A DNA stretch of 63,207 nucleotides, counting the filler, from Octopus bimaculoides (lineage: Eukaryota): the NCBI RefSeq assembly GCF_001194135.2. It is 3 parts of 3 records of this genome, joined end to end, with 100 filler letters (N's around TTAATTAATTAA, not from the genome) between each part and the next. Parts side by side here need not be neighbours in the genome. Positions count along the whole stretch, not along the records: positions 1 to 31,868 come from NC_068997.1; positions 31,969 to 61,186 come from NC_069003.1; 1 more part is not named here. One strand, given 5' to 3'. The notes beneath the pieces were generated by a model. That model searched no databases and was not told where the DNA came from. It saw nothing but the letters and a program-made list of their open reading frames with translations. Both the position numbers and the translations under genes were made by a program. This document shows positions 656-58,887 of this stretch, one piece after another; within the stretch, counting starts at the first letter, position 1; each line of letters starts with the position of its first letter.

Positions 656-1790
656 TCGAGCAAAGAATATAAGTAGCGATCGTGATACCCACCACGAAGA
701 AATGATCAAGCTCAGTAACAATCTATTAAGAAACAACTACCCCAAGAACATACTATCTACTCCAATTATGAAGAAAAGAGAGGATGAAACCAATAAACTG
801 TCTACAGTCTGTCTACCCTATGTGAAAGGCCTCTCCGAAAAGATACAAAAGATATGCAGCCCATATGACATCAGGGCAGTATTCAAGAGCAATACANNNN
901 NNNNNNNNNNNNNNNNNNNNNNNNNNNNNNNNNNNNNNNNNNNNNNNNNNNNNNNNNNNNNNNNNNNNNNNNNNNNNNNNNNNNNNNNNNNNNNNNNNNN
1001 NNNNNNNNNNNNNNNNNNNNNNNNNNNNNNNNNNNNNNNNNNNNNNNNNNNNNNNNNNNNNNNNNNNNNNNNNNNNNNNNNNNNNNNNNNNNNNNNNNNN
1101 NNNNNNNNNNNNNNNNNNNNNNNNNNNNNNNNNNNNNNNNNNNNNNNNNNNNNNNNNNNNNNNNNNNNNNNNNNNNNNNNNNNNNNNNNNNNNNNNNNNN
1201 NNNNNNNNNNNNNNNNNNNNNNNNNNNNNNNNNNNNNNNNNNNNNNNNNNNNNNNNNNNNNNNNNNNNNNNNNNNNNNNNNNNNNNNNNNNNNNNNNNNN
1301 NNNNNNNNNNNNNNNNNNNNNNNNNNNNNNNNNNNNNNNNNNNNNNNNNNNNNNNNNNNNNNNNNNNNNNNNNNNNNNNNNNNNNNNNNNNNNNNNNNNN
1401 NNNNNNNNNNNNNNNNNNNNNNNNNNNNNNNNNNNNNNNNNNNNNNNNNNNNNNNNNNNNNNNNNNNNNNNNNNNNNNNNNNNNNNNNNNNNNNNNNNNN
1501 NNNNNNNNNNNNNNNNNNNNNNNNNNNNNNNNNNNNNNNNNNNNNNNNNNNNNNNNNNNNNNNNNATAATAGTAATAATAATAATATAATAATAGTAACA
1601 TCGTTAGGAATGAGAACCCAAGTTCGAAATTTCCCCAAGACACCTGACGAAGGCTGGAGGGTATATCAGCGGAAACGTTGTGTTAACAACAAACAAGATG
1701 AGGACAAATATCCGTCAAATGTAAATAATGTAAATAATGTAAATAATGTAAATAATTCCTCATCGCTTAAATATAGAACAGCCACTCCTG
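656..1790 (+). mobile_element. Penelope-like element 3' portion (RT C-terminus/linker, gap, terminal repeat)
   Basis: 656-895 translates DRAKNISSD...HEEMIKLSNNLLRNNYPKNIL...VCLPYVKGLSEKIQKICSPYDIRAVFKSNT, typical of the PLE RT thumb/linker. After the gap come an HHR motif and (aatgtaaat)n. Continuity across the gap is assumed. Confidence 0.75.
1639..1684 (+). ncRNA. Minimal type-I hammerhead ribozyme motif (PLE terminal repeat)
   Basis: GACAC-CTGACGA-A-GGCTG[gagggtatat]CAGCG-GAAA-CG-TT-GTGTT. Stem I GACAC/GTGTT; palindromic stem III ACGU; stem II closing pair is a G-G mismatch. Confidence 0.7.
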
Positions 1791-2009
1791 TGTATATTAG
1801 TTTTCCTTGGCATCCAGTTTTGAATTTCTCAGTTATGATCTGGAGGACTATAATGAAAAAGTGTGGGCTGAGAACTGAACATTTGTGAACCCCTACTTGT
1901 ACGCTAAATTCCCTACTGTATTCATGGCCGACTTCTCCTTATTGATAACACCACTGTACATGGCTTGTACAGCTCTAATGAGTCACTCATCAATTCCTAA
2001 CTTCCTTAG

Positions 2010-2410
2010 ACACCAGCAGATAACAGAGCGGGGCATCTGTCGAAAGCTTTCTCCAGGCCAATGAAAGCTAAGTACAACGGAATAATTTTGGGCAAATACG
2101 TTTCCTGCAGCTGTTTTACTTGGAAGGTGGTATATGTGGCACTCTTCCCTGGTACAAAACAAAACTGCATCACATCTAATTTAATTCTATTCCTAATTAA
2201 TTGTATTATAACCTTCTCAGTAACTTTCATGACCTGGTCTAGCAGTTTAGTACCTTTGTAGTTGTTTCTATATAAGGCATCACCTTTACCGTTATAGCAG
2301 CTAACTATAATAATACTACACCAGTCATTGGGAATGGTGCCTTACTGATTAACTCGATTAACTATACAGGTGGTTAGGCTGTCTCCTACACCACCATATA
2401 TTGTAACTAT
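2010..2410 (-). pseudogene. RTE-clade LINE RT fragment
   Basis: Minus strand reads IPNDWCSIIIVSCYNGKGDALYRNNYKGTKLLDQVMKVTEKVIIQLIRNRIKLDVMQFCFVPGKS...LYLAFIGLEKAFDR (RT domains 0-3). Confidence 0.85.
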
Positions 2411-2872
2411 GACATTCAATTATGAAATGTATGGTACGTAGCATAGCAGTCTGGAAATATTGCAATCTCTCTACTCTCTCCTGTGAACAATACAACATGC
2501 TGATAAGCAAACAGTCTATCAAGCCTATGTAGTCTACAAGAACAACACTTTCAGATACTAATTTCCCACATGGAATCTGTTTGTCATGCATTATCTCCTA
2601 CAGCTTCATATGCAGCTGTAGTCAGTTTCATATGCAAGCAACATAAACGCACACACCTTCCCAAGACTTTACAGACAGTGCTACCCAATTAACCCAGTTC
2701 TACTTAAATTAGTAAAAAAACCTGACCCCCAAATAGATTAAAAGTAAAGCAACACCTATCAACCCTATAATTTTTGCCAACAACACTGGAGAGCGTCAAA
2801 TACAGTCACTTATAAAACACACACACACACACTCACACACATATTACGGTGTTTTGAACTGTGACAAAGACA

Positions 2873-3385
2873 AATTATTGGTTGAAATGGATATAATTAT
2901 TCGTCTGATAGAGGAAAGATGGCTGCTGAGATGCCAGAGAAGTTCAGTATTGTAGACGTCAGACGTTAGGATTTTCAGTCATAAATCTTGGGCTTCTTCA
3001 GTTTGCCTGATGATTATTCATATTATGGGTCCTGTGTTGTCTGTATTTTACTTGTCTTTCTTTCCATGTATTCATCCATCTAGGCTACTTGATATTATAG
3101 ATTGCTGGTTGTCTGTATGTTACTTGTCTTTCTTGTCTTTTACCCCATATATTCATCCATCTAGGCTACTTGATATTATAGATTGGTGGTTGTCTGTATG
3201 TTACTTGTCTTTCTTGTCTTTTACCCCATATATTCATCCATCTAGGGTGTTTGATATTAAGAGTTGAAGGTTGTTTTCTACATTCCATGTGTTCTTATAT
3301 CGCGGTGTTGTTTTGGTGTTGTAGAATATGGGTTTGTGGTCTGCAGTTAGGGTGAACTGGAGGTCATCTCCGCTGTCTAGTTATC
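2873..3385 (-). mobile_element. Penelope-like GIY-YIG C-terminal fragment with internal 81-bp tandem duplication
   Basis: Minus strand reads RYKNTWNVENN...NTLDG*IYGVKDKK, resembling the PLE RYxNHxxSF..NSTxLS.YIW.LK motif. An 81-bp unit is repeated about 2.5 times at 3040-3250. The fragment abuts the Gypsy 5' LTR remnant. Confidence 0.6.
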
Positions 3386-6117
3386 TTATTCATTATACGT
3401 AACAATTCCGTTATAACATCTGGCAACGAGGGTTTTGAAGATCACGTAGGTTGTTTAACAATTTGTTCGTGATACAACTTGTTAGATATTACAGCTACAA
3501 CTACAACAACGACAATCACTGGAGTTATATTCAAAGAAGTAAAATAAATAAGGTGAGCTCGTTTTCGCCAGACAGCGTTTCGAACTCAATTAATGAATTC
3601 ACAGAGGAGGCTATAACCTTTGCATCATACTACAGAAGGTACGAGAAGATTTTTCAGCAAGATTTCAAATCATAGTCGGTTGAATAAAAAGTGAAATTGT
3701 TGTTGCAAAAACAAGGTTCGTTATAACATGAACGTTACTGTAATATCATATTGCGCCAAAAACCCAATGAAATTTGTTTTAAAGAAACAATAGAATTAGG
3801 GTGTAACATATTCGGTGATAGAATGTTTATAACACTCGAATGGAGTGTTGGAATTTAACAAAAAAGAGAATACTGGTTTTATCACATACGCAGGAACATT
3901 CAGCATGATGTGTGAAAATTTTAAACTTACACCTGAGATGTTCAAGTGTCTTATTTTCATACAAGGCCTTACAACAAGTGAAGATGCAGAAATTCGGGCA
4001 AGAATTCTTTCTGAAGTGGAACAAACAAACCAAAATCTTATCTTACAGTCCATGGCAGAAGAAAGCCAATGGAAGGTAAACCTGAAACACAATGTAGAAA
4101 TAATTCTAGAAAAAGATTCTTCAAAAATACAGACATGCCGACCGGAAAAGTAGAACCAAAAGAGAGCACCACGTCTTAACCCATGATATGGGTGTGGGAG
4201 CATACATTTCAGAAAAAAGCCTTTCCATTTAAAAATCAAGAATGTTACAGTTGCAAAAGAATTGCTCACAAGAGTTCACACTGTAGAACAAAATTAGGAA
4301 TGTCTAACGTTAAAAATCCTAGAATGCTCAGAGCAGAAACATAAGTCGACTTCCAAACAAGAAAATTTGTGCACTTAAAAATAAATGGTATACACATTAA
4401 ACTTCGATAGGATACGGGTAGGGATATTTCAATAACAGATATGGACATATGGAAGAAAATAGGGAAACGTATGTTCAGAAAAACAGCAAAATCTGCCTGT
4501 AGTGTGACGGGCGACAAATTACATTTTATAGGCAAAATGTAGACTAATGTCACATTTCAAGGGAAAATACAAAGCAAAAGTCTTCGTCGTTAAAAATACA
4601 ACTGATCTGTTTGGTACCGACTGGTTGGAGTTATTAGATTTGTGGTATCTCCCGTTAAGTACCTACTGTAAGAAAATAAATGCCTGTCCCACCAGTAAAA
4701 ATATTTCAGCAGCAAGAGTAAAGAAAGAATTTCAAAAAATTGTCTCCTGATGTGCTGTCAGACAAATTAGATCTCTGCTCTATGACTGAGAGCCCATGTT
4801 CCAGGATACATATCGACCACGCTGGACCAGTGAATGGCACATACTATCTAATCATAGTGGATAGCTATACAAAGTGGCCAGAGGTATGCAGATGTAATAA
4901 ACCCACAGCAAAGACAATAATAAAGTTCTTATTCGAGTCATTTGCTCGATACGGTGACCCAGACACATTAGTTTTAGATAATGGAGCACAATTCACACAA
5001 TATGAATTAAGAAATTTCTGCAAAATACATTCCATAGAGTGCATCTTTACCCACCCTACCACCTAACGTTAAATGGGCAAGCAGAAAGATTTTTCAACAC
5101 ATTCAAAAGAGCTCTAAGAAAAGCTAAGAGTGAGCTAGATTATGACGAGACACTAACGAAATTTTTGAGAATATATCGAATAGCACCAAATCTAAATACT
5201 AATTCAGGGAAGTCACCAGCAGAGTTAATACTTGCGCATAAACTAAAATCAATCTTAAATAAATTATTGCCAGAAAAAAATACATAAAGAGGAATGACAA
5301 AAAATACATTTGAATGAAAAACAAGAAATATTACGAAACATTTGGAAGTAGGATATAAAGTTCATTTTAAATGTAACAAAAATGGTAAAGAAGGTTGGGA
5401 GGATGGCTGCGTAATCAAAAGATAAGATAACGTGATGTATTTAATCAAAGGACAACGTTCGGGACATAAGCGATACCTTAAGCAGTTAACGATGAACCAT
5501 ACCGAAAAACGAAAGGTAATGCCAATGGAAATCTTCTATGATATTTTTGAAGTCTCAGTTCCGAGAGACATTGAAACCTATAGAACTAGCTTCAGAAAAT
5601 GAAAACACACTGAACACCTCGAAGTAATACCTAAATGAAAAAGATATTCAATTAAAAAAAAAAAAAAATAATAAACAAGATTGCTTAGAAGAGTACTTAC
5701 TACAACAAAAAGAAAAAACTACTGTGTGCAACGAAAAATACTATCTTAAAAGTCGGGTAACAACAGCTAAGAAAGAAGAGGGGGAGATGCTGGAAACAAA
5801 AAAAAAACATAAAAGAAATTCCACTTGCTCATGGTGGTCGAAATCTCAAAAGGAGAGATGTTGTGATGAGAATTACGACGTCCTCATGCGAGTGATAGAC
5901 TGATCCGAGTAAAGTATAAATAGTAACGATCCGAGTGAGTTCACAGTTCAGATTTGAGTGGAGTTCGAGTTAGTTCGCAGTGAATTCGGAAGTTGTCCGT
6001 TGGTTAGTTCACAAAGAATATTGATTTTGGATCATAAAGAGATTTGATAGTTCGTTACATTGTTTTAACTTTTGTCTGGTTATATTATTTATTGTATGTA
6101 CCAATTCTGATACAACA
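3386..6117 (+). mobile_element. Ty3/Gypsy LTR retrotransposon, internally deleted (gag-protease-integrase, no RT/RNaseH), decayed
   Basis: 5' LTR end ...ttataaca (3418), PBS TGGCAACGAG (3421-3430), gag FSPDSVSNSINEF..TFASYYRRYEKIF, zinc knuckles (ECYSCKRIAHKSSHC), protease DTG (4411-4419), integrase RIHIDHAGP / LVLDNGAQF / NGQAERF, PPT aaaaggagaga (5848-5858), 3' LTR TG..CA 5859-6117. Confidence 0.9.
5859..6117 (+). repeat. 3' LTR of the Gypsy element
   Basis: Starts TGTTGTG immediately after the PPT and ends caattctgatacaACA, resembling the 5' LTR end caattccgttataACA. Contains TATAAA. Confidence 0.8.
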
Positions 6118-6284
6118 ATTTGTATGAATCGGATGCTTATATCCTACAGAGTGGTTTACAGCTAAACATACAATATACGCTAAAAACTCGTTTATAAGGT
6201 TTGATTAAATGTATATAGAGAATAGACTGAAATTATAAACCGTACCAAATTATTTTTTATAGTCTGAGTTAATTTTCCTAATTT

Positions 6285-6682
6285 TATTCTTTTATTCTTT
6301 CACGTGTTTTAGTCATTTGACTGCGGTCATGCTGGTGCACTGCTTTTGGCTGAACGAATCGAGCCCAGGACTTATTCTTTGTAAGCTGAGTAGTTATCCT
6401 ATTGGTCACTTTTGCCGAACCGCTAAGTTACGGGGACATAAACATTCTAACATCGGTTGTCAAGTGACGGGGACAGGGATAAACATAGACACACAGACAT
6501 ACACACATACATATATATACGACGGGCTTCTCTCACTTTCCGCATACTAAGTCCACTCATAAGGCTTTGGTCGACCCGAGGCTATAGCGGAAGACACTTG
6601 CCTAAGGTGCCATATAGTGGGACTGAACCCGGAACTATGTGCGCTTGGGAAGCAAGCTTCTTACTATAGAGCCACGCCTATA
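6285..6682 (-). mobile_element. SINE family A, near full length
   Basis: Reverse complement has the tRNA-like head (ggcgtggct...gggttcagtccc), an internal (CA/TA) microsatellite and the same 3' tail as 20204-20610. Confidence 0.9.
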
Positions 6683-7340
6683 AATATTGTAATAATATTT
6701 AATGCTTGCTCATGCAAAACGTAGAATTACACAGAATGTGGGACTTCACTATACAGTGTAAAGAAATATACATTTTCATGGGACTTAGAATTTTGAACCC
6801 TTTTTTGTATTTCAGTGATGACCCCCTCCCCCTTCCATTTCTCATCCCTTCCATCCCGCTTCCTAAAATTGACATCTTTGAAAGGTCACCAGTCCTTGTG
6901 AGAAAATGTATTTATTTATAAATATTTTGATAGGTGTACAATGGAAAAAAAGAAAAGAGAAAGAAAAAAGAAAAAAAGCTTTGTAATGAAATTTCAATGA
7001 ATCGACCACATCAAATTGAAAAGAAGCCTTTTCCTCTTTCTCACTCCCCCCCTCTCTCTCTCTCTCTCTCCATCTATCTATTTATCTATCTCCCTATCTA
7101 TGTATCAATCTGTATATCTATCCTTTCCGCATCCTTAATTATTATTTTTTCTCCTCTTACTTGATTGTCCTGAAAACTCTCTCTCCCTCTATGTATTTCC
7201 CCTTCTTTACTTTTCTTTCTCTCTCTCTCCCTTTTTCCAAAAAAGGCAAAGCAATAATCTTCTTTTCTAAACAAAACAATGAACATCCGATTTATATAAA
7301 TGAATAACGAAACGTTCTGTTCTTACTCTTTTGGTTTTTA

Positions 7341-7386
7341 CTTTGTCTTGATGAGTTCGAAAACTGAACGAAAGCGTTAATAAAGG
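7341..7386 (+). ncRNA. Hammerhead ribozyme motif with C3U core change
   Basis: CTTTGTC-TTGATGA-GTTCG[aaaac]TGAAC-GAAA-GCGT-TA-ATAAAG. 5-bp stem II; self-complementary stem III AGCGUU; lies downstream of a CT-rich tract. Confidence 0.5.
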
Positions 7387-7421
7387 GTTATCCAAAATTC
7401 TGATTGCCTTCTTTCTCTCAA

Positions 7422-7447
7422 CATACATACATACATACATACATACA

Positions 7448-7478
<31 letters not shown>
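7422..7478. repeat. (TACA)n microsatellite
   Basis: Direct reading. Confidence 0.95.
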
Positions 7479-7959
7479 GTATATTAATCGTTGAAATGGA
7501 TTTGGGAAATGGATTTGGCAATAGTCCTTATTCAGCCGACAATCCTTTCGACCCCTCCTACAATTTTCCTTTATGAGTAGGATCTGATGCATCCAATTGT
7601 GTTGCATAAATCAATGCAGTCTGGGTCATATCAGGTACATGCATGCATAAAGTGGTGTCCCGCTAAATATATTAAGTTCTTCTCGTCATGTTGATGTCTT
7701 CCCGCTGTACCAGCAAATGGGGATTGCTACAGCTGTTCTTATATCAAGTAGTGTTAGGTTAGCATAATAATCATAAACATAAAACTATAAACTATAAAAA
7801 AATATACATAAGAAAGAAATAGAGAGAGGGTAAGACATGTTAAAAAAGGTTAGATCGCATTATATTTAAAGAGATGGAGACTACTAGCTACTAGCACAAA
7901 TTAATCTGAATGTGACCAGAAAGGCACTGGCAGTACACTACAAAATAAGAAACTGGTAA

Positions 7960-8330
7960 CGAATGCTAATGCAGAGACCGAGCTAATTATTCTGAACGTA
8001 ATATAAGCAAAAACGGTAATGAAATACATAAATACACCGTAAATATCAAAGGAGGCCCCTATGTGTATATCAGACAAAAGACGATACAGAAATCACATTG
8101 CGAGCTTGAAAAAGGTAAAGAAACGAAACTCAACATCACTGGCCGATTTCATTCAGAAACTCAAGGAAGAGAAGGTCAAATACAACTTTCCTGGTCCATA
8201 CAAGACGCTGTCCTGGATACGCCAACTATGTTCGGAAAAATCGCTGTCTATATTATTGACGAATGATAGAATTAGAAGTCGATTGACTGCTCAGATGCAC
8301 GAATGCAAATAAGCACACATTCACGCAGTA
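7960..8330 (+). pseudogene. Penelope-like GIY-YIG endonuclease fragment
   Basis: Frameshifted reading ECxCRDR... KYTVNIKGGPYVYI ... KRRYRNHIASLKKVKKRNSTSLADFIQKLKEEKVKYN ... RQLCSEKSLSIL. Confidence 0.75.
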
Positions 8331-8940
8331 TGAGAGGAACCACACCAAACAATTACAGACTAAACACGAAAGACGTATAACTCTCACAATTTAAATTCCG
8401 TGCCTCTTTTGAGTGACAATCTCATGAAAAACAGCTCCTAGACCTTATACCACGTAAGAATTGGATGGGACTGCTACAACATATATAATGTTAACTTTAG
8501 ACAACCTACTCAAGTTATACATATTCCATATAACTCTATCTTAAATAATGTCATCAATATTATTACTGAACACGATTAGGCCAACTGGATGTACAATCTT
8601 TGCCAGTCTATGTTTTATATAACACGTTTTGTAAAACCTGTCCAACTTCAGTTTCATACATGACATAGTCATGTATGTGTGTGTTTCTATCAGAATGCAT
8701 CTATACTTCACTAAAGTATATTAACAAAATGTAATTAAATGAATAACTACATAGACAAAATGCATATTTGTTTAAATGTATATGCAAATATAGATGCATG
8801 TGTGTGTGTATATTAAAAGGATGTGTTATAACATACGAACCTGATCTTTTCCCCGCCAAAAATTCCAACCACAGGACAGGCATGAAAACCTGCAATTTCT
8901 GGTTATCTAAATTCTACCCCTTCAAAGGTTTGCGTACGCA

Positions 8941-9362
8941 ACTAGGCACAAGGTCCGAAATTTTGGGGGAGGGGGCCAGTCAATTAGATCGACTCAGATA
9001 CGCAACTGGTACTTAATTTATCGACCCCGAAAGGATGAAAGACAAAGTCGACCTCGGCAGAAATTGAACTCAGAACATAAAGACAAACGAAATACCGGTA
9101 AGCATTTCTCCCGGCGTGCTAACGTTTCTTATTTCTTCATTGCCCTCAAGGGGCTAAACAGAGAGGAGACAAACAAGGACAGAGAAAGGGATTAAGTTGA
9201 ATACATCTACCCCAGTGCATAACTGGTACTTAATTTATCGACCCCGAAAGGATGAAAGGCAAAGTCGGCCTCGGCGGAATTTGAACTCAGAACGTAACGG
9301 CAGACGAAATACCATTAAGCATTTCGCCCGGCGTGCTAACACTTCTGCCAGCTTGCCGCCTT
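8941..9362 (-). mobile_element. SINE family B, dimeric (two tRNA-related monomers in tandem)
   Basis: The unit cgtgctaac...gcatttc..ccgg / gaactcagaac / gtcgacctcggc / ttatcgaccccgaaaggatgaaa occurs twice (8941-9130 and 9131-9362) with different tails. Confidence 0.85.
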
Positions 9363-9470: not shown

Positions 9471-9995
9471 TCCAAATTATCTACCTCCTTATATACACAA
9501 CCACAAATCCTCAAATGTTCCTTATACCCTAACCTAATCAATTGTAAGTGAGGCTTCCTCACACAATAGTAATTCCAGAATATGTAAATTGTGTTTCCAC
9601 AACTTCTCATTACTTAAAAGATTTTCAAAGATAATACTTACTTGGAAACATAGACAAAATACATATGTGTGTATATGTATATGCAAATATAGATGCATAT
9701 GTGTGATTGTATACATCAAAAGAATGTGTTATAACACTATTCTACATATACAAAACAGCCATACCAACAATTCAACATACCTCCATCATCAGCTGCCCCA
9801 CGGATATCATTATGGTTTCGACACCTGTGCAAAGTCCCATCCAATTCTTCCGTGGGAAATTGTTTGCCCATTTTGTTAAATCTATGTAATACCCTTACTA
9901 CGATTATCTGTAATTACGTTTAACCTTAAGGTACAGTTAAGTTTCACTAGAAACGTATTATCCTCCACTAATACTACTCTTTCTACTAAATTATT

Positions 9996-17505: not shown

Positions 17506-17849
17506 TGGAACGAACTACTGCTATCTCTAGCAGACGGATGTCCACTACTGAGGATGAACACAAATAGCTCGAAACCATTGATACATAGACACATCCGTAC
17601 ATACATAATACATACAGAATGATGATGACTATTCAAAAAACAGTTTTAGATTTAGTTAGTATGGTGAACACAAAATGCGCATATAAGTAGAAGTGGTGTT
17701 GCTTTTATATACTACAATAAACAGAATGGTCATTTTAACTGTTTTATGGAAAGACCGAGCTCTTTTTATTTACATGTAGCACAGCATTATGTGTACATTT
17801 GTGAAAATTAGATTTTGTATAAATTTATTACAAATTGGTATATTTTTTT

Positions 17850-20203: not shown

Positions 20204-20610
20204 GGCGTAGGAGTGGCTGTGTGGTAAGTAGTTTGCTTACCAACCACATGGTCCCGGGTTCAGTCCCATTGCGCGGCATCTTGGGCAAGTGTCTTCTACT
20301 ATAGCCTCGGGTCGACCAAAGCCTTGTGAGTGGATTTGGTAGACGGAAACTGAAAGAAGCCCGTCGTATATATGTATATATATATATATGTATGTGTGTG
20401 TGTATGTTTGTATGTATGTGTTTGTCCCCCCAACATCGCTTGACAACCGATGCTGGTGTGTTTATGTCCCCGTAACTTAGCGGTTCGGCAAAATATATCG
20501 ATAGAATAAGTACTAGGCTTCTAAAGAATAAGTCCTGGGGTCGATTTGCTCGACTAAAAGGTGGTGCTCCAGCATGGCCACAGTCAAAAGACTAAAACGA
20601 GTAAAAGAGT
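20204..20610 (+). mobile_element. SINE family A, full length (tRNA-derived head, internal TA/TG microsatellite)
   Basis: A-box-like TGGCTGTGTGG, B-box-like GGTTCAGTCCC (20257-20267), body with internal microsatellite at about 20367-20420, tail gtaaaagag. Confidence 0.92.
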
Positions 20611-21523
20611 ATGTTTATACAATATTTTACATCAAGTTTGTACTACGTTTGCAAGAGTAATGCATTTCAAACTGGAACTAAGTTCTTGGCTTTACCAATC
20701 TATCCATGACTGCATGTATTTTGCATAATTATTATAGACTTATGAAGTGCAATACAAATGCTTGCTTCAGAGATACACCTTTTGAGACACTGGCTCAAGG
20801 TATGGGTTCTAGTGACATAAACATTTACTTTCTCAGAAGATCAACATTATTTGAGTACATCCTGCAAACAAACTGAATCACAACTACTTTCAGTCGAGGT
20901 GATATAATATATGGAATGTTAGCAGCAGATCTGAGTTCTTCAGTAAGAGGTAGAACTGTTCTCTGTAATGAATTATTATTGGTTTATCTTAAACTTGAAA
21001 GACGTGCTGTTTTGATCCAGAAAAGGCATAGTATGCTGTCGTCCCAAACGCCATGTGATGTAACTGAAGGAATGAATTCATTTTGATTTCTTTCTTTTTA
21101 GTTTGAAAGAAAGATTTTTGCTTTTGTTCAAATGTGTGTATGTGTGCGTGTGTGTGCTTGCACGCGTACATGTCTAATTTTTAAAGTCACGTGGTTTGGT
21201 ATGAGTAAATTTAATTTAAAAACAAAAAGAGTAAAATACTCTGAGAACCTTATCACAAATAAAAGGAGGAAAATCTTTCTACTTATAAATCAATGAAACA
21301 ATATTAATAAAGACCAAACTACGAAATAGCAACAGAAATAAGAATAGAAACATGTGGAAAACCCAACAGTGATTTATGTTTAAATCTATCAGAAAGATGA
21401 GATATACGTTTTTTGAAAATAAAAGCAGGTCTTCAAAATAAAAGCAAAATGATTTCTTTGTGCGTTCGAAAGAAATTTATTCAACACACCCAGAATGTAT
21501 AGCAAACTACATAGGACAATTAA

Positions 21524-33625: not shown

Positions 33626-33828
33626 TCAGTCATTAGACTGTGGCCATGCTGGGGCACCACTGTCAAAACTTTTTTGTTGAATGAGTCAACCCAGTACTAT
33701 TTTTTCATTATGATTGGTACTTAGTCTATTTGTCTCTTTTGCCAAACTACTAAGTTATAGGGACATAGACACACCAACACCAGTTGTCAAGTAGAGGCGG
33801 GAGACGAACACTGACACAAAGACACACA

Positions 33829-33898
<70 letters not shown>

Positions 33899-34050
33899 CA
33901 GTGGGCTTCTTTCACTTTCTGTCTCCAAATCCACTCAAAAGGCTTTGGGTAGCCTGAGGCTATAGTAGAACACACATGCCCCAGGTGCCATGCAGTGGGA
34001 CTGAACCCCGTACCATGTGGTTGGGAAGCAAGCTTCTTACCATACAGTCA
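33626..34050 (-). mobile_element. SINE family A, diverged full length
   Basis: Tail cagtcattagactgtggccatgctgg, internal TA/TG microsatellite, head gggactgaaccc...cttcttaccatacagtcac. Confidence 0.85.
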
Positions 34051-34629
34051 CATATGTGCCATGTTTAACTATGCAAGCTATATTTTTCTCTTTTTGAAAC
34101 CACTTTGTCAACTTCAAAAAGGCTTCAATTAATATTGATGAGATACAATAGAACCGAAACACGTTTGCTTTTTGTCCTCCTGGGAATCAAGATCAAACTT
34201 CTCTCTGTACATGTAAGTTAACTGTAAGAAACTACTTTATTTCTCCAAATTATCTCCCTTTGTCCTTGAGACTCACCAACAATTAATGAAACTTTATTTA
34301 AATTAAAATTTCCTTTGTCAATTCTATTGATTACACTAATTACTATACATTAAATGATTGAGGGACTGTACTCTAAAGGAACATCTGTGCTCTATATAAT
34401 AGTCAAAACATTTCAAACAGCTGAATTATGCATATGTGTGTGGTGGTGGTGGTGGGGTCAAGTGTATCTGTTGTTTGTGTGTGTATTGTGTGTATGTGTA
34501 CGTGTGTGTTGTGTGTGTGTACCAGTCTAGAGCAGTGCATCCATTTATGCTCATTTCTGTTACATTCATCAACACACATACATACACACATGTACTAGAA
34601 AGAAAAAAAGTGCATAGTGCACTTTATAA

Positions 34630-34790: not shown

Positions 34791-36276
34791 ATGATAATGA
34801 TGATAATAATGATGATGTCATGGTGATGGTGATGACAATGATGCTACATGAAATAAAGCTCTCTATTGGTAGTTTATTAGTTGAATTTAAATCATGGAAT
34901 ATTTTACATAAATTTATTATTTCAAACACATCGGCTATATTATTATACAACTATAAAGATTTCTATCTTTTTATTTTAATTTTTTTTAAGATTTTAATTG
35001 CCTTAATTTCATTTATGGAATAACTCACTATGAAGTGAAACAATAGAAACAGACTCACAATAAAATGAAACAATGAACATACATGTACACAAACAGCCAT
35101 ACAATTTGACAGAGTCATTCCCCCTTCTCCTCTTCATCAACATCATTCTCATTTTACAGTCCTTCTTTCCATACTCGCATAAGCAAGACAAGTGCTGTTG
35201 GAACAGGTTTTCCTATGGTTGTGTGTTGTGTGTGTGGGGGGGGGGAAGCGAGAGAGAGAAAGAGTGAGAGACAACACGTGTGCATGTGTGCAAGTATGTA
35301 TGTATGCAAGAGATATGGCATGTATGTATATCCTTTATATATATGTGTGCGTATAAGTATAGTGTGCGTTTTTGCGCTAGTGTAGTTTTATTTTACACAT
35401 TGATGTCTGTATGAAGGAATATGTGAGTTCAAATTAGTTACAAACAATGCTCTATCTGGTTCTACTTTTCCCCTTTTTATCCTTTCATCTTGCCCCCTTT
35501 CTCTTCTCTCCTCTTGCTTTATCTTCTTTAAGTCATCAACACCCTATCTTGTATTCTACATTCCCACTATGGTGCCTTTGCGTTTTTTTTTGTTTTTTTC
35601 AGCTTTACAATCGTTGAGGAAAACTATTAATTACCTAAAGCCCCCCTATACATCTATACAGTTAACAAACTACACCTATTCTAACCTTGCTGAAGTTATT
35701 TTTAACCAAAGCACTAGTTTGATTACTTGGCCAATTCCTTTTTCCATTTCCATTTCAACTGCAGAAATGTAAAAAATGTTTTCCAGTTTATTTTGGTGAA
35801 TTCATTATGGCAAAGGATTTCTAAGTGTCACATGACAATTACCTGATGAGAAAGAACACTAAATAATTATGAAGCACCTTAAAGTTACATAACATGCATT
35901 TCGTGCACCTTTTGAAACATGTGTTGTACATAACTACCTATTCCATTCCTTTTGTTCACAGATTTAATTATTGCATAATAAGCAACCATTGTTACTATAT
36001 ACTGGAGTTGTGTAGTACAGTCATCTTAGAATTTCTGTCTAGTCTCAATATGGGATAAAAATGTATTGGATACTTTGATTAAAAAAATTAATTAATTGAT
36101 TATCATCTCCATATATATATTATTGATAACACCTAGAAGATGCTTTCCATTCACCAAAGTGAATGGAGCTTTGGAAAGGAGTAACTGATGTTATCAGGTG
36201 GTATCCAATAATCATCAGGTGTTTCAACTCTGAACTGGTGAATAATTATATATATATGTATGTATGTATGTATGTA

Positions 36277-36990: not shown

Positions 36991-37217
36991 CTTATTATTT
37001 TATATATGTATATATATATATATATAGATTCAAGGCTTGAATATGGTACTTATGCGAAGGCACCCGAATATCACCCGAATATCTAGCCTGATAGACCCTG
37101 CTATGTCAAGATGGACTTATATATTCTTCCTCACATTTGGATTTTATGTATGCTCTCTCCCACTTGGTTTTAATATGTTGCCACATTTGTAATATGTCTT
37201 TTTTCTGCATTTTTTCG

Positions 37218-37306
37218 TGCAGCTGAAGATTGCTCTTCATATTGCATTTAAGGTAATGCTCACATTACTTAAATAAATTGAAGTAGCATGAAACGTGCGT
37301 ACTGCA
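37218..37306 (+). ncRNA. Type-I hammerhead ribozyme with long stem II, in a ~310-bp ORF-less element flanked by (TA)n
   Basis: TGCAG-CTGAAGA-T-[TGCT CTTCA..ATTTAA G GTAATG ctca CATTAC TTAAAT..TGAAG T AGCA]-T-GAAA-CGTGCG-TA-CTGCA. Confidence 0.75.
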
Positions 37307-37477
37307 ATCACTTTTGAAATCCGTGTTGCTTATTGTTTGATATATATATACATATATGTATATATATATATATATATATACCAAAGTAAGCACATAAATG
37401 TGAAACAAGGTGGAAAAACTGTACTCGAATACCGTAGGTAGAGTAATATACTTTATTAATACGGCTGCATAGACATC

Positions 37478-37527
37478 ACAAAAACTGTTACTCAGAGTTT
37501 CACATTCCCATTCGTTGGACAGTTTTG
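37478..37527 (-). ncRNA. Degenerate hammerhead (same family as 58834-58887), core CCAACGA
   Basis: Reverse complement aaaactgt-CCAACGA-ATG GGAA TGT-GAAA-CTCTGAG-TA-acagttttt. Confidence 0.6.
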
Positions 37528-37558
37528 GTTTGGAATCATCTATCTATCTATCTATCTA

Positions 37559-37592
<34 letters not shown>

Positions 37593-38967: not shown

Positions 38968-39300
38968 GTCTTGTCGCCTTCCTGGCACGTGAAAAGACAT
39001 TCGAGCGAGTTCGTTGCCAGTCCTGCTGGACTGGCTCCTGTGCAGGTGGCACGTAAAATACACCATTTTGAGCGTGGCCGTTGCTAGTACCCCTTGACTG
39101 GCCTTCGTGCCGGTGACACGTAAAAGCACCCACTACACTCTCTGAGTGGGTGGCGTTAGGAAGGGCATCCAGCTGTAGAAACTCTGCCAAATCAGATTGG
39201 AGCCTGGTGTAGCTATCTGGTTTCACCAGTCCTCAGTCAAATCATCCAACCCATGCTAGCATGGAAAGCGGACGTTAAACGATGATGATGATGATTGATG
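38968..39300 (+). mobile_element. Retroposon with tggcacgtaaaa internal repeats and (GAT)n tail (RTE 3' UTR or RTE-tailed SINE)
   Basis: Three ggcacgt/gacacgt-aaaa units; tail catgctagcatggaaagcggacgttaaacgatgatgatg; near-identical minus copy at 51958-52248. The RTE link is from recall. Confidence 0.8.
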
Positions 39301-40030
39301 ACATCAGTGAAGTAAACCAACCATGAGCAAGTGTAACTTAGGGCATCTTTTGCTTCCTCCCAAACTTTATCTTCCACTTTACTAAATTTGTCCAGTTTTA
39401 TTTAGATGTGTGGTGATTTAACTCAGATTTATCTCACTTTTTGCTTGAGGAGTGTATACACAGGTGTATATGCTTCGTGCTATTTGCACCATCTAAAACA
39501 ATCATAACAGTTTTCACATGCTGATGGGCCTCCATATAAACAGCAGCATGAGTAGGCACTCCACTGTTCTTTTGGTGCCAAGCAAACACAAGAGGAAGGT
39601 GAAAGCAGTTGAGAATTTTGGGTTTGAAGATAATGGTGAGGGAGTGAAAGAAAGTGGGGAGACATAGATGAGCTAGTGTTGTATTATGCTAGAGTGATAT
39701 TGTGTTCAGTTGTCTTTGTTGAGTTCCGAATTTGTTCATATAGTGTACTGTTATTTCTGGTCTGATAGAAATGGAAGATGTGATGGGCACCAGTATTGAA
39801 GTAAATGTTTGTTGAAGTGCTTACATTTTTTAAAGATCTCAAATCTGGGTTTCACTATTTGAAGATATGCATGTTTATATACCACACAATGAGGTTTCGA
39901 TGCTTGGCACAAAATATAGTTGATAACTTAAAGTTCAAATTTTAAACCGGTCAATGGAGAAAATAATTTACCACCATTCATATTATATTCCCTGGACTTT
40001 AGCATCATTGGTTTTGGTTGCATATAAAAG

Positions 40031-40087
40031 ATGACAGTGCTGAAGAAACAGTTTTTATATAATGCTGTGAAACTAATAGTATACCAT
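40031..40087 (+). ncRNA. Type-I hammerhead ribozyme candidate
   Basis: ATG-aca-GTG-CTGAAGA-A-ACAG[tttttatataatg]CTGT-GAAA-CTAATAG-TA-TACCAT. GUA triplet; bulged stem I. Confidence 0.55.
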
Positions 40088-48414: not shown

Positions 48415-49293
48415 TAGAGGGAGAGAGAGAGAAGCAGAGACAGAAAGTGAGGCATACATACATATACATTTGAGTAGCCCATATGCAAACGTGTTAGATA
48501 TAACTTTACACGAATATATATTGTGTTCAATTCTGCATCATACAGCTTTATTGAAATTTAGGTAGACCAAGCTTTGCACACCCCAACCAAAAAGATGTAA
48601 TGCTTTCAATATCTCTTCCTACACCTCCAGTTTTTCACCTCTCCTCCCTCTTTCTTTTGTGTGTCACTATTGCTTTTTCTGCTCCCACTACAGTGCTGAA
48701 TCTCCGCCTTTCAATTCTCTACCTCTTCCTGCTCCTCATTGGAGGCCTTTTCGTTTCCAACCTTTCCTTTCTCTCTCGTTCTTTCTCAATCGTTAATTTT
48801 GTTTCTCTTTCTTAATCTTCTCTCATTTACCCACCTTTTAACCACTTTATTACTATCAACTCTTTTTATATTTATTTTCCTTTCCTTTTACCCCCACCTC
48901 TCTCGCTCTCTCTATCCCCCATTTTCTCTGCCTCCTACCTCCTCACTCTCTTTATCACCATCTCTCACTTTCTCTTTGTCCTTTGCTTTTGCTCTCTTGT
49001 ATCTTTCTTTCATTGTCTTAACTTTCTATCTCTGCAACCCTACCACTACTGCATATTTCCTCTCACCTAATTCTGTCTCTTTCTTTCATTCTTTCTCTGT
49101 CTCCCCCTCTCTCTATGGCCTATCATTTCACTTCCCCAATCTCCCCTTCTTTTTTGCTTATATCTTTATATCTTCTTTCACTCCCATTTGCAAAATTACT
49201 TTCATCTCTCATTTACCTTGCAACTGTGTTTCTATTTAAAATCTCATTTCTTCAAATCCCCTTTCAATTACAATCGCATTTCTATTAATGTGT

Positions 49294-49409
49294 AGTAAAT
49301 CATTCATAAAAAGGGGAAAAATATATTTGCTTATAGCCATAATTCGAACTTGCATCCATGAATTTTTAGTTCCTGAATATACTTTTCCCCTTTTTATGAA
49401 TGATTTACT
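49294..49409. repeat. Inverted repeat: 27-bp perfect arms plus 6-bp extension around a 48-bp spacer
   Basis: agtaaatcattcataaaaaggggaaaa (49294-49320) versus ttttcccctttttatgaatgatttact (49383-49409); tatatt/aatata inside. Confidence 0.9.
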
Positions 49410-50149
49410 CCCCATTTCCCACTGAAATTAATGAAAATCAGATACTACATTGACATTTTCAGCATATCATTCTTGTGTAATCTTCATCAGCAACTGATTA
49501 TGGAAGCCATGCTTTATAGATACAGGTTCAAATTACACTCACAACCAAATATAATCCTTTCATTTATCAGTCATTTGTTTGAAATGACGTTCACATTAAT
49601 AAGGCCTCAGAAAAAGATGTCCCACACAACATCCTCTCTTGTTAACCCTTTTGATACAAACCTGCCCAAGTCTGTCCCAGCTTCTATGATACAAGCTTTC
49701 TATATAAAGTTAGCTAAATTAAAATTTCCCATTAAAATTCCATGTTAATTTATGTTCTAATTAGCAGCTTAGTAATGACCAAGATATTTTACTGAATTTT
49801 TTTTTTTATATTTTCAAAATTAATTGAAACAAGTGCAGTGTAGTTCAACAGAAATATGATTACAGAAGGGTTAAATGTTTGTGTGCTTTGAGGGCAAATG
49901 GAACCGAAAAGCTGTGACAACAAACAAATGCTGTCAAGAATGCAGCTCACAGAAGACAAGACTTAGCAGAAACAGGTAGGTTGTTCAAAGAAATAGGAGA
50001 TACCTGGTGAATAACAAGTTCACTTTTAACAGAATGTTACCAGATAGGTTGTGCGTAGGTGGCACGAAAGCCCACAAATGCACCGGGCTGAATGTAAAGC
50101 TCAATCAGTAAGACAAGCAGAGGCTAAATCTCAGTCGTACATATGAATA

Positions 50150-50860
50150 ATAGAAGAAAAATGAGTTCAACTATGATCCTAGATAGGATTATGCTTCCAG
50201 AAAAATTAGCACTATGTCCCAAAGTTTGTTACAAGTGCTTAAGTGAAAAAGGAAAACAATTGACTGCTGTAATGCATTGTTCTAATTTAAAAGTTAGTCT
50301 AGCTGTACTTGTTGATCCATCAGAGCCCTTAAGAAATCTTACTTCTACTACCGAGAAATTCAGCACTTTTGTTAAACATCAGAAAATACAACAGTTTTCA
50401 GATGACTTCTTTTCAAGCAGGGAGATATTCATACCAGCTTTTAAAGCACAAGAGTAGACTTAACAACAAGATCAAAACACTTCAGTCTCTTCCAAGAGAC
50501 AGGCCCATAAGAGAAAACATCATCTTTTTTATGTATAATATTTGAGCTGAGTCTCAAGAGGTGCTGCAAAAAAGCAATGTCAGTAGATTCAATATTGCAC
50601 TGGAATCTGTAACCATTTGAGACTTTTACATTATCATTTATGAATAATTAATACCCTGTATAGAACATGAACGTCAGAAAGCTATGAGGTTGTTATCATA
50701 AGCAGAGAGCAACTTGGGACATCGCTCTGAAGTACAAAGACACCAGTCAAAATTATAAAACATATAAATCTTATAATGTTCTGCAATGTTCCTATAATGT
50801 TCTACAATATCCTTTTCTTCAAGGCAAAAGTGAAGATGGGCATCACTTTGGAATAAAACA
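50150..50860 (+). pseudogene. Helitron Rep/helicase N-terminal region relic
   Basis: CPKVCYKCL..MHCSNLKVSLAVLVDPSEPL; NIRKYNS-FQMTSF; PAFKAQ; EHER; SYNVLQYP..SEDGHHFGI. Confidence 0.8.
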
Positions 50861-50954
50861 GGCTGGGTTAGGTTCTTTAAAGGCTTTCGTTATTAAGGAC
50901 CTAATTTTTAGCCCAGTCAGGTGGGGAATGGCTTTCATGAGTCTTTAGTTGAAT

Positions 50955-51270
50955 GAACCAACCCCAGTACTTATTTGTTTTGGCCTGGTACTTATTCTAT
51001 TTTCCTTTCTGCTGAATGGCTAGGTTATGAGGACATAAACACAGTAACACCGGTTGTCAAGTGGTGGTAGTGGACAAAGAGAAAGAGACAGACAGATACA
51101 CACACACACACGTATGCTATAAGTTTCTTTCAGTTTCCATTTGCCAAATCCTCTCAAAAGGCTTTAGTTGACCCAAGATTATAGTAGAAAACACTTGCCC
51201 AAGGTGGCATGCTGTAGGACTGAATCCAGAACCATATAGTTGGGAAACAAACTTCTTGCCCCACAGTCAC
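50955..51270 (-). mobile_element. SINE family A, diverged
   Basis: caaccccagtacttatt...ggttgtcaagtggtgg...cacttgcccaagg...ttcttgccccacagtcac. Confidence 0.8.
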
Positions 51271-51309
51271 TACTACACCATAATACATACATACATATAN
51301 NNNNNNNNN

Positions 51310-51341
<32 letters not shown>

Positions 51342-51482
51342 TAAATACAGTGTAGATTTAAACACATAAGAGGTATCCATCATAGAATTCCTTGCATGCT
51401 AGAAAGAACAGTTAAATTCCAAACCACTATTTGGGATAAAACTTCGAAGGGAATGAAAAATAAAAACATTCACTATCTAACT

Positions 51483-51551
51483 CCTGGACCATGATTTCTG
51501 ACTTATTTTAGCAAATAAAATAATTTGCTAGGTGAAGTCTTCTTCAGCAGG
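51483..51551 (-). ncRNA. Type-I hammerhead ribozyme (GUC), minus strand
   Basis: Reverse complement CCTG-CTGAAGA-A-GACTT cacc TAGCAAAT tatttt ATTTGCTA aaat AAGTC-A-GAAA-TCATGG-TC-CAGG. Confidence 0.72.
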
Positions 51552-51659
51552 TACACCCAGATTAGACATATATGCACGCTAGGCCACTGGTAGTAGAAAT
51601 TTCTAATATTTCTTATTACCCTTGATATTATTAATTATAATTGTTGTTGAGATTGGTTC

Positions 51660-51757
51660 TCTTTCTTTCCTGATGAGAAGATTACATTATTTTACACCGT
51701 TTATTCCTTTGGAATAAAACCAATGTTATCTTCGAAACATATGTCGAAAGTAAAAGA
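51660..51757 (+). ncRNA. Canonical type-I hammerhead ribozyme (GUC) with palindromic stem III
   Basis: TCTTT CTTTC-CTGATGA-GAAGAT..(TTTATTCC ttt GGAATAAA)..ATCTTC-GAAA-CATATG-TC-GAAAG ta AAAGA. G10.1-C11.1 intact; predicted cleavage after C51745. Confidence 0.85.
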
Positions 51758-51957
51758 ATTTGAATAACATTTGCATTCAACTCCATTTATTTACTTATAA
51801 TATACAAATTACTGCACATTAACCCAGTGTTTCTACCTTTGAATAGGTTGCTACATCCTTGTTACTTGCATTAATTTTGCTACCCAGGTAACTGTTTATT
51901 GAATTTTCTGTGTTAACTGTAAACAAAGGATAATTCATTCATCCATTTATATATATA

Positions 51958-52248
51958 TCATCATCATCATCGTCGTCGTTTAACGTCCGCTTTCCATGCT
52001 AGCATGGCTTGGATGATTTGACTGAGGACTGGTGGACCAGGAGGCGACACCAGGCTCCAATCTGATTTGGCAGAGTTTCTACAGCTGGATGCCCTTCCTA
52101 ACGCCAACCACTCCGAGAGTGTAGTGGGTGCTTTTACGTGCCACTGGCAAGAGGGCCAGTCAGGCGGGTACTGGCAACGGCCACGCTTGAAATGGTGTAT
52201 TTTACGTGCCACCTGCACAGGAGCCAGTCCATCGGGACTGGCAACGAT
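51958..52248 (-). mobile_element. RTE-tail type retroposon (as 38968-39300), runs into a gap
   Basis: (CAT)n cgtttaacgtccgctttccatgctagcatgg...ttttacgtgcca. Confidence 0.82.
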
Positions 52249-55022: not shown

Positions 55023-55104
55023 AGCCAACAGTTTGTTTCAACTTATATACATTTGTTTTGATATATAAACAATTCAATACCCTTATATAAGCCTCATCAG
55101 AGCC
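55023..55104 (-). ncRNA. Type-I hammerhead ribozyme candidate, minus strand
   Basis: Reverse complement GGCT-CTGATGA-GGCTTATATA..TATATAAGTT-GAAA-CAAACTG-TT-GGCT. 10-bp stem II with two G-U pairs; weak 4-bp stem I. Confidence 0.6.
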
Positions 55105-55224
55105 AATGGTTTGAAGATAGATGAAATTCCAGGTGAAAGGATAGCTGGATTGTAAAAAATTAATTCAAATGCCTATGTATTGAGCGTGAATGTTAGTCAT
55201 TCAACCACATAGGGATTACAGTTA

Positions 55225-56506: not shown

Positions 56507-56715
56507 AACTGGCAGAATCATTAGCATGCTGGGCAAAATGCTTCAGGGCATTTTGCCCATCTTTACATTGCTAGTTAAAATTCTACCGGGGTTGGCTCTG
56601 TCTTTCATTTTTTTCAGGGTTAATAAAATAAGACCTGTTCAGTACTGTGGTTGATATAAATGACTTAGCCCCTTCCCGAAAATTGCTCGCCTTGTGCCAA
56701 AATTTGAAACCAATA
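56507..56715 (+). mobile_element. SINE family B, diverged monomer
   Basis: actggcagaatcattagcatgctgggcaaaatgctt...cgccttgtgccaaaatttgaaacc. Confidence 0.75.
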
Positions 56716-57300
56716 TAGACCCTCCCCACTACATATAAGCACCAAGGGCCAATTTATAAAATCAGTTAGCATTTTTGTTTGCTGAACATCATGTTTGCAA
56801 AAGAGTAGATTGATGAAGCAGAAAGATTTATAGCATCTAATTTTGATTGTCTGCATTCTGCATCTCAACCTTGTTCATGTTAATAAATATGTATATATCA
56901 GTTGGAAGAATAGACATATTAGATATTATATTTATGTATTTCAATATTGTTTTTTTTTTAAATAGACAGATGTAATCACAGAGCATATAAAACAGAGCTA
57001 CAATTACACGAGTCTTGTATGTATTCATAGACAGCAATGACATCTTTCTCAAGGACTTCAGAAAAAAATAATAAATATCCTGATTATTGATATTTTATAT
57101 TCTAATAATAAAATATCTCTTTGAAAAATCTCTATAAATACCTTTTTTCCCCATATAAAGATCTATAAATAGAAATATCTAAAAATGCTTTTAAAATATG
57201 AACAGAGTTAACAGAAGTGTGTTTTCAAGCTAAACTAGGTAACATATATGTATTAGGGGATTGATATTTTCACAACGCACAGGAATATATACAACATATA

Positions 57301-57462
57301 GGCATAGGCATGGCTGTATGGTAAGGTGTTTGCTTCCCAACCACATGCTCTTGGGTTCAGTCCCATTGCATGGCTCCTTGGGCAAGTCTCTTCTACTGTA
57401 CCCTCAGGCCAACCAAAGCCTTGTGAGCAGATTTAGTATACAGAAACTGAAAAAAGCCCATC
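57301..57462 (+). mobile_element. SINE family A 5' half running into its TA microsatellite
   Basis: ggcataggcatggctgtatggtaag...gggttcagtccc...gaaactgaaaaaagccc. Confidence 0.85.
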
Positions 57463-57478
57463 ATATATACATATACAT

Positions 57479-57513
<35 letters not shown>

Positions 57514-57518
<5 letters not shown>

Positions 57519-57600
57519 CTCATAAAAGATAGAGCTCAAAATCGATGCATTGAAGATACTTCAATGCATCGATTTTGAGCTCTATCTTTTAAGAGACATA
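57514..57600. repeat. Near-perfect palindrome: 42-bp arms, 3-nt loop, inside (TA)n
   Basis: tatgtctcataaaagatagagctcaaaatcgatgcattgaag-ata-cttcaatgcatcgattttgagctctatcttttaagagacata; one mismatch. Confidence 0.93.
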
Positions 57601-57628
57601 TATATATATATACAAAANNNNNNNNNNG

Positions 57629-57891
57629 GTAGCTGCACACCAGCATGAAGTATATTTGCCACTTAAATGCGGCTAACCACTAAGGGTGAATGCTACTGTA
57701 GCTTGTCATATCAGGTCAGGTCGATGATGGGAAGGATGACTTCCCTTTGCAAATACTGATAGGGCACAGAAAGTGTGTCAATGGCCAGCTGGAGAAGGGG
57801 TTCACCTGGGGCTACAAGCGACAGTAGCATTCACCCTTAGTGGTTAGCCGCATTTAAGTGGCAAATATATTTCACGTTGTTGTGCAGTTAC
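57629..57891. mobile_element. MITE-like element with ~78-bp terminal inverted repeats
   Basis: 57629-57706 is the reverse complement of 57814-57891 (shared tatatttgccacttaaatgcggctaaccactaagggtgaatgctactgt). Left TSD is hidden by a gap. Confidence 0.82.
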
Positions 57892-58833
57892 TGTTTATAC
57901 CTCATTCAGAGATTTATTATTACTTGTTTACACTTTTTTGAGANNNNNNNNNNNNNNNNNNNNNNNNNNNNNNNNNNNNNNNNNNNNNNNNNNNNNNNNN
58001 NNNNNNNNNNNNNNNNNNNNNNNNNNNNNNNNNNNNNNNNNNNNNNNNNNNNNNNNNNNNNNNNNNNNNNNNNNNNNNNNNNNNNNNNNNNNNNNNNNNN
58101 NNNNNNNNNNNNNNNNNNNNNNNNNNNNNNNNNNNNNNNNNNNNNNNNNNNNNNNNNNNNNNNNNNNNNNNNNNNNNNNNNNNNNNNNNNNNNNNNNNNN
58201 NNNNNNNNNNNNNNNNNNNNNNNNNNNNNNNNNNNNNNNNNNNNNNNNNNNNNNNNNNNNNNNNNNNNNNNNNNNNNNNNNNNNNNNNNNNNNNNNNNNN
58301 NNNNNNNNNNNNNNNNNNNNNNNNNNNNNNNNNNNNNNNNNNNNNNNNNNNNNNNNNNNNNNNNNNNNNNNNNNNNNNNNNNNNNNNNNNNNNNNNNNNN
58401 NNNNNNNNNNNNNNNNNNNNNNNNNNNNNNNNNNNNNNNNNNNNNNNNNNNNNNNNNNNNNNNNNNNNNNNNNNNNNNNNNNNNNNNNNNNNNNNNNNNN
58501 NNNNNNNNNNNNNNNNNNNNNNNNNNNNNNNNNNNNNNNNNNNNNNNNNNNNNNNNNNNNNNNNNNNNNNNNNNNNNNNNNNNNNNNNNNNNNNNNNNNN
58601 NNNNNNNNNNNNNNNNNNNNNNNNNNNNNNNNNNNNNNNNNNNNNNNNNNNNNNNNNNNNNNNNNNNNNNNNNNNNNNNNNNNNNNNNNNNNNNNNNNNN
58701 NNNNNNNNNNNNNNNNNNNNNNNNNNNNNNNNNNNNNNNNNNNNNNNNNNNNNNNNNNNNNNNNNNNNNNNNNNNNNNNNNNNNNNNNNNNNNNNNNNNN
58801 NNNNNNNNNNNNNNNNNNGGAGTTTCATGTTCT

Positions 58834-58887
58834 AACAAAACTGTCTGATGAACGGGAACGTGAAACTCCGAGTAACAGTCTTTTGTT
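58834..58887 (+). ncRNA. Compact type-I hammerhead ribozyme (GUA)
   Basis: AACAAAACTGT-CTGATGA-ACG[GGAA]CGT-GAAA-CT[CCG]AG-TA-ACAG tc TTTTGTT. Long stem I with a 2-nt bulge. Confidence 0.85.

Follow-up and report, generated by a model that had tools for sequence, protein, structure and literature searches.

Single hammerhead ribozymes dispersed with Penelope-like elements (PLEs) have been described in many animals, and isolated hammerheads of the dimer type did not cleave in vitro (PMC4209133). PLE insertions are frequently 5′-truncated (PMC8557442). In PLEs, reverse transcription begins at an internal position downstream of the hammerhead; ribozyme mutations had no effect on insertion in vitro, and no RNA-seq ends were found at the cleavage site (PMC11167929). 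PLE families are abundant in Octopus, according to two accounts whose available portions do not mention ribozymes (PMC13282606; PMC8967140). One Hydra-clade hammerhead in File S2 of PMC8557442 comes from O. bimaculoides, and 235 Rfam hammerheads have been counted in the giant squid (PMC6962438). Non-LTR retrozymes, which lack long terminal repeats, are tandem units, each with a hammerhead (PMC7229834; 10.64898/2026.07.22.740005), and Naiad PLEs have been reported without a canonical hammerhead, with just "core" and "half core" notes (PMC8557442). Here we compare these systems with a 63,207-nt stretch of Octopus bimaculoides DNA, three parts of RefSeq assembly GCF_001194135.2 joined end to end (the window), in which an earlier note had listed nine hammerhead motifs, called m1 to m9 here in order of position.

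We conclude, with a probability of about 0.78, that the nine motifs are 3′ tails of PLEs, present as single, 5′-truncated, and now mostly inert copies. Dispersed PLE hammerhead tails are an already known kind of element; read this way, the motifs reveal an abundance of PLE tails in octopus DNA, including some whose long helix II arms escape Rfam models. Comparison with published Naiad ends yields a second, more tentative lead, which matters more than the nine motifs.

Hammerhead motifs and their surroundings

Seven of the nine motifs contain exact CUGANGA, GAAA, and UH boxes in type I order, with cores at 1644(+), 37223(+), 40040(+), 51547(−), 51670(+), 55100(−), and 58845(+). Two fall short of the earlier count of nine hammerheads, as the first box of m2 has an extra U and the core of m4 is broken, but the set exceeds chance. 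A strict descriptor, fixed in advance, gave three matches compared with 0.08 per shuffle (maximum 1) in 100 local dinucleotide shuffles. When helix I was allowed to be as short as 3 bp, the same descriptor gave five matches against 0.16 per shuffle. A relaxed descriptor, tuned post hoc when the motifs were already known, gave seven matches against 0.65 and 0.48 per shuffle at two shuffle widths, a count reached by 0 of 200 shuffles at each width (0 of 400 overall). Seven of the nine motifs pass it; m5 does not, passing solely the strict descriptor with its helix I setting of at least 3 bp, and m4 fails. In a decoy control, the exact core passed at 6 of 34 sites and ten decoy words passed at 1 of 162. 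The motif set as a whole is real, and m5 alone is doubtful.

Nine motifs in 57,116 non-N bases correspond to one per 6.3 kb, close to the earlier estimate of one per ~6 kb; usable cores occur once per 7.1 kb and strict matches once per 19 kb. Among 11 candidates compared, m4 and m9 are the only related pair (81% over 83 nt), in keeping with the claim of about eight families, and the box-to-box span of 10–60 nt agrees with the claimed stem II range of up to about 60 nt. The proposal of a large, diverse population lacking open reading frames (ORFs) is supported, the two families tested being high-copy. Only m1 lies near PLE coding sequence, as had been stated, albeit across a gap of 669 N.

Helix III is self-complementary in all nine motifs, with a loop of 0–1 nt in eight and of 3 nt in m8, and closure within a monomer is possible in one of the nine (m8). 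Among the eight motifs whose core is usable, seven had a helix III pairing probability of at most 0.02. On the same strand, 38–202 nt downstream of the cleavage site, a TA-type tract is present in eight of the nine motifs; within 250 nt upstream, one of nine has such a tract. The downstream link comprises seven independent tracts of eight (m3 and m4 have one tract in common) and has a P of about 4 × 10−5 against a background of 18% within 250 nt, a cut-off chosen post hoc. All seven motifs from m3 to m9 conform to a (TA)n insertion with the hammerhead near its 3′ end (38–202 nt). Stubs of different families abut in two places. At 37009–37588, m3 and m4 share one TA tract and lie tail-to-tail; at 51310–51957, m6 and m7 lie head-to-head, meeting near 51640 without an intervening tract. 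A recognisable 5′-truncated Naiad tail in the same window supports the assignment to PLE tails. The link to PLEs drawn in the earlier note was right, and it is stronger than that note supposed.

The 601 bp holding m6 and m7 matched 2,357 and 4,731 contigs from two DNA runs, mostly 90–99% alike, although contig depth does not equal copy number. Copies of m7 have several different 3′ ends followed by (TA)n, and some continue upstream past the window copy, as seen from loose ends. In one run, depth drops steeply 40–60 nt past the m7 site, where loose ends enter (TA)n. Among the 40 of 120 variable sites that were displayed, nine fall inside m6 or m7, all of them outside the core boxes, and two strengthen m6 pairing: position 51494 forms a Watson-Crick pair in most other copies and position 51499 is paired in many. 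The window copies of m6 and m7 have diverged from their families. The segment between them (51576–51638) has a high depth of its own, and in several contigs it is joined, across other intervening letters, to sites inside the m6 stub, a pattern suggestive of length variants in that family. No RNA runs on record covering 51345–51945 were listed.

These features are consistent with a putative route of insertion. The GIY-YIG nuclease of a PLE would nick a TA microsatellite, and reverse transcription would begin shortly downstream of the hammerhead and mostly halt early, leaving a stub of ~100–300 bp with the hammerhead 40–200 nt from its 3′ end. Short tails would be expected because PLE insertions are often 5′-truncated and reverse transcription starts internally. 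Given a self-complementary helix III whose loop spans 0–3 nt, cutting would need two copies of the same family within one transcript, as in a tandem element. Little cutting would be expected of lone stubs in host transcripts, m8 being the least certain case; such cutting is unlikely because lone dimer-type motifs failed to cleave in vitro (PMC4209133).

The PLE ORF fragment at 657..896(+), covering the reverse transcriptase thumb and linker, is ended by the assembly gap at 897–1565 (669 N). It has 78–79% identity to residues 59–138 of an Octopus sinensis protein (P0002), and 80 of 92 candidate proteins match it, several carrying RVT_1. From its short linker, we take the fragment to be of Penelope/Poseidon type. 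Motif m1 (1639..1684, +) is a minimal type I hammerhead with the layout of the min-HHR of PMC4209133: helix III is a 4-nt palindrome, an extra A precedes helix II, and the helix II base has a G-G mismatch. We infer that m1 is a Poseidon-type tail. A 25-codon frame (1644–1721, +) opens within the m1 core; compare PLEs whose ORF starts at the hammerhead (PMC11167929). Motif m2 (7341..7385, +) is a variant whose first box reads CUUGAUGA, with a (TACA)n tract 42 nt downstream.

The remaining motifs probably derive from the Hydra clade or a similar TA-targeting clade; Neptune-type elements are possible. Motif m3 (37218..37306, +) has a 60-nt helix II arm with U-U at its base, and its element lies between TA tracts at 37009–37026 and 37341–37380. 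Motif m4 (37480..37527, −) is a dead copy of the m9 family, with CCAACGA at 37518(−) and no CUGANGA match, and m5 (40037..40084, +) is weaker, with a 3-bp helix I and a helix III of 4 bp plus 1 nt. In the high-copy families, m6 (51483..51551, −) has a 42-nt helix II arm and m7 (51665..51750, +), the best motif, has a 57-nt arm, a GUC site, and an exact 8-nt palindrome as helix III. The arm of m8 (55023..55104, −) is 54 nt, and its helix III consists of 3 bp and a 3-nt loop. Motif m9 (58836..58885, +) is compact, with (TA)n 38 nt downstream; its helix III and the beginning of its helix I match Hydra-clade elements.

Other candidates were considered. A type I candidate at 35840–35928(+), denoted 35843(+), with a 69-nt arm and a TA tract 321 nt downstream, passed one descriptor and failed the other, has no relative in the window, and is individually doubtful. 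At 17530–17610(+), both core boxes (17548+) lie within an 8-bp outer helix but lack a valid cleavage triplet, which may mark a decayed hammerhead. A match at 21413(+) in a scan for boxes in any order was rejected as chance (one match compared with 1.1 per shuffle). That the long-armed motifs might be Naiad tails was also rejected, for want of a match to the octopus Naiad ends examined.

Alternative explanations

Some observations weigh against the motifs being hammerheads, and others against their assignment to PLE tails. Rfam hammerhead models, which the earlier note had suggested as a check, gave no match in the window at E ≤ 1 (none among 80 matches; those found were microsatellite-driven). 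Folding z-scores were unremarkable (−2.6 to +0.4) across the eight motifs whose core is usable, and for most motifs the minimum-energy structure was not the hammerhead fold. As to the PLE assignment, no ORF links m2–m9 to any clade in a search whose profile was built from Poseidon-type proteins only, and although a PLE ORF lies upstream of m1 on the same strand, 669 N intervene. A search of the PMC8557442 supplement with six 12-nt motifs from the window gave a match for one of them, to sea-cucumber rather than octopus elements, and the helix II arms of 42–60 nt are longer than any Hydra example listed in File S2 of that paper. In addition, m8 could close helix III as a monomer, the sparing of core boxes was read with 80 of 120 variable sites undisplayed, and truncated copies and short non-autonomous families are indistinguishable here.

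The last point bears on whether the motifs belong to dedicated non-autonomous, retrozyme-like families that would be transcribed as units, circularised, mobilised by PLE proteins, and able to cut read-through transcripts. High copy number and the lack of an ORF fit such families, as do the TA tracts that flank m3 and m4 on both sides. The m6 and m7 families are both present in two runs guessed to be RNA, their transcript status being unshown, and lone retrozyme monomers exist in vertebrates (10.64898/2026.07.22.740005). However, tandem units define retrozymes, and a comparison of the window with itself, using units of 150–450 bp as the criterion, found none at any of the nine motifs. The 3′ ends are variable, m7 copies run on upstream, and helix III requires a partner copy, all of which make this explanation unlikely. 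Far less credible is the idea that the host has retained some motifs to cut introns or long transcripts in cis. Helices I and II of m7 do form at about 0.9 probability, and motif-bearing repeats are common to three organism labels, but what is shared are repeat families, not loci; most other copies differ from those in the window, m4 is dead, and the window yielded no host exon. A regulatory reading of the nine motifs is weak. The earlier suggestion of retrozymes and of host-transcript cleavage is not supported, given the absence of tandem units, the rarity with which helix III closes, the divergence of the window copies, and the lack of a host exon.

Chance matches in AT-rich DNA would account for the missing Rfam match, for the weak z-scores, and for m5, 35843(+), and 17548(+), each doubtful on its own. 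They would not account for the shuffle and decoy controls, the oriented link to microsatellites, or high-copy families in which the displayed variation spares the core boxes. Chance is the most improbable of these explanations; it is largely refuted for the set, though not for m5 alone.

Putative rearranged hammerheads at Naiad ends

A tenth motif, absent from the earlier list, is the 3′ end of a Naiad PLE at 9713..9850(−). By eye, 9827–9713(−) differs from the 3′ end of Naiad_Obim (supplement of PMC8557442) at ~6 positions in ~116 nt. GAAA (9819–9816) precedes CUGAUGA (9792–9786). The cleavage block (9840–9829) is decayed, the position of U16.1 is G, helix I is disrupted, and the upstream helix II strand is absent. 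Since it lacks U16.1, helix I, and this strand, the copy is useless as evidence of function; it was not recovered by the any-order hammerhead scan, and the motif had no matches in metagenome contigs.

Following the block scheme of PMC10085705, we read 30 of the 54 Naiad consensi from File S5 of PMC8557442 by eye at their 3′ ends; record names follow file order, and none of the pairings was computed. Seventeen of the 30 ends can be folded as non-circularly permuted hammerheads (seven of type SGC, four of type CSG, and six of an opened layout), a proportion that is not an unbiased rate, as the set is enriched for ends whose core the authors had flagged. The seven SGC ends are from arthropods and have a helix I of 7–9 bp, a helix III of 6–11 bp (one with an internal loop), and an outer stem. 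Their helix II is of 2–3 bp or more, merely 2–3 bp in several, and one has a U3-A8 core. The four CSG ends are from nematodes, with helices I, II, and III of 5–6, 4–5, and 6–12 bp. Helix sequences vary between Naiad families while pairing is kept. For Naiad-2_Dst, an upstream S block was expected before the end was read; for four others, the prior expectation was unrecorded.

The opened layout, in which the chain is open between A9 and helix II, was found in Beroe, Clytia, Morbakka, two Octopus, and Euprymna Naiads. The block order is S-G-C, and helix II (4–6 bp) pairs with a strand located upstream of block S; next comes an additional helix of 5–16 bp, which may hold the parts of the opened chain together. 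Beroe has a helix I of only 2 bp and Euprymna a mismatch in helix II. In octopus-type Naiads, the strand directly after CUGANGA would give a helix II of 0–2 bp, too little for type SGC. The layout amounts to a break inside the catalytic core.

No such motif was seen in the 330–600 nt examined of the other 13 ends, which include six bivalve ends and several incomplete records. Five of the six bivalve ends in the supplement of PMC8557442 lack a hammerhead core and have another conserved motif in common.

Minimum-energy folding is unable to model permuted hammerheads. In a control of 20 shuffles, which have the composition of the window and not that of Naiads, a helix I of at least 7 bp with a helix III of at least 6 bp, in any order, occurred at 0.05% per core, a level of pairing reached by six SGC ends; helices I and III of at least 5 bp each occurred at 1.1% per core.

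A CSG descriptor run on metagenome contigs matched at least 120 loci. Among the matches listed, one is a full CSG hammerhead (L007, positions 1–352), with helices of 6, 3, and 8 bp, all Watson-Crick, an outer stem, and a 252-nt partial tandem beside (TG)n; the other 119 listed look like chance. As no ORF ties L007 to Naiad, it shows the CSG fold in eukaryote-like DNA, not a Naiad link. In this one case, the first copy begins precisely at position 10.1, which is where the octopus-type Naiad layout is opened.

From these pairings, we tentatively propose, at slightly less than even confidence, that many Naiads rewired the hammerhead rather than lost it: as type SGC in arthropods, as type CSG in nematodes, which would be the first in animal genomes, and as an undescribed opened layout in ctenophores, cnidarians, and cephalopods, all of which would cut as monomers. 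For the SGC and CSG Naiad hammerheads taken alone, we predict activity as probable. The lead appears strong on pairing and draws on published consensi more than on the window. A literature search, in which subscription journals were thinly covered, found no paper linking Naiad to hammerheads. If true, the proposal would call for revising the published account of Naiads as elements that spread without hammerheads, an account that had served to suggest that hammerheads merely parasitise PLEs, and it would give non-circularly permuted hammerheads a place in animal genomes and a biological home.

Window setting and comparison with known systems

The window consists of animal DNA rich in AT and in microsatellites and includes 6,091 N; the best protein match of the PLE fragment and the matching octopus Naiad end point to Octopus as its likely genus. 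Pfam matches were found in 5 of 22 longer ORFs, solely to integrase and reverse transcriptase fragments, and in 0 of 42 further ORFs. For the ORF at 50128–50454, none of 55 candidates among longer proteins proved homologous, and the Pfam and homolog searches that found no host exon are weak evidence on that point. Broken integrase and reverse transcriptase pieces of other retroelements lie at 4722–5284(+), 26303–27056(−), and 28477–28764(+). A dispersed repeat of ~400 bp is present in many copies with 66–89% identity (6293–6680, 20208–20611, 33615–34051, 50944–51280, and others), and a 295-bp repeat pair (39011–39304 and 51955–52247) is 92% identical. There are also a near-perfect 111-bp palindrome at 57502–57612 (94%) and a weaker one of 130 bp at 49287–49416.

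The nine motifs resemble the minimal hammerheads of metazoan PLEs (PMC4209133) in their type I order, palindromic helix III, and extra base before helix II, and in occurring as many heterogeneous families per genome, mostly as single copies, with opposite-strand pairs 100–700 bp apart. Unlike those hammerheads, four window motifs carry helix II arms of 42–60 nt, and their density looks higher than the 4,000–9,000 per genome reported there, as judged from one window with a looser descriptor. With Hydra-clade PLEs (PMC8557442), m3–m9 share the (TA)n target, a hammerhead lying close to the 3′ end, a helix II base of U-U or A-U, and a helix III of 3–4 bp with a 1–3 nt loop; the m9 scaffold matches those of Hydra-2_Ajap and Hydra-2_Amil. 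They differ in having no ORF beside them and longer helix II arms, and none matches the Hydra-1_Obim motif by eye. Like non-LTR retrozymes (PMC7229834; 10.64898/2026.07.22.740005), the nine motifs have type I hammerheads, no ORF, and a likely PLE origin, but they lack tandem units.

The tail at 9713–9827(−) resembles Naiad PLEs (PMC8557442) in its match to the octopus 3′ end and in the (TA)n target. In block order and in their three covarying helices, the Naiad ends resemble the type SGC and CSG hammerheads of PMC10085705, and in the arthropod and nematode Naiads and L007, an outer stem joins the far sides of helices I and II, as described there. Those types were described in metatranscriptomes and metagenomes instead of the genomes of known organisms, and arthropod Naiads differ from them in S-G linkers of up to ~330 nt. 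In the octopus-type layout, the helix II strand lies 5′ of the cleavage block, which breaks the assumption of PMC10085705 that block C is contiguous.

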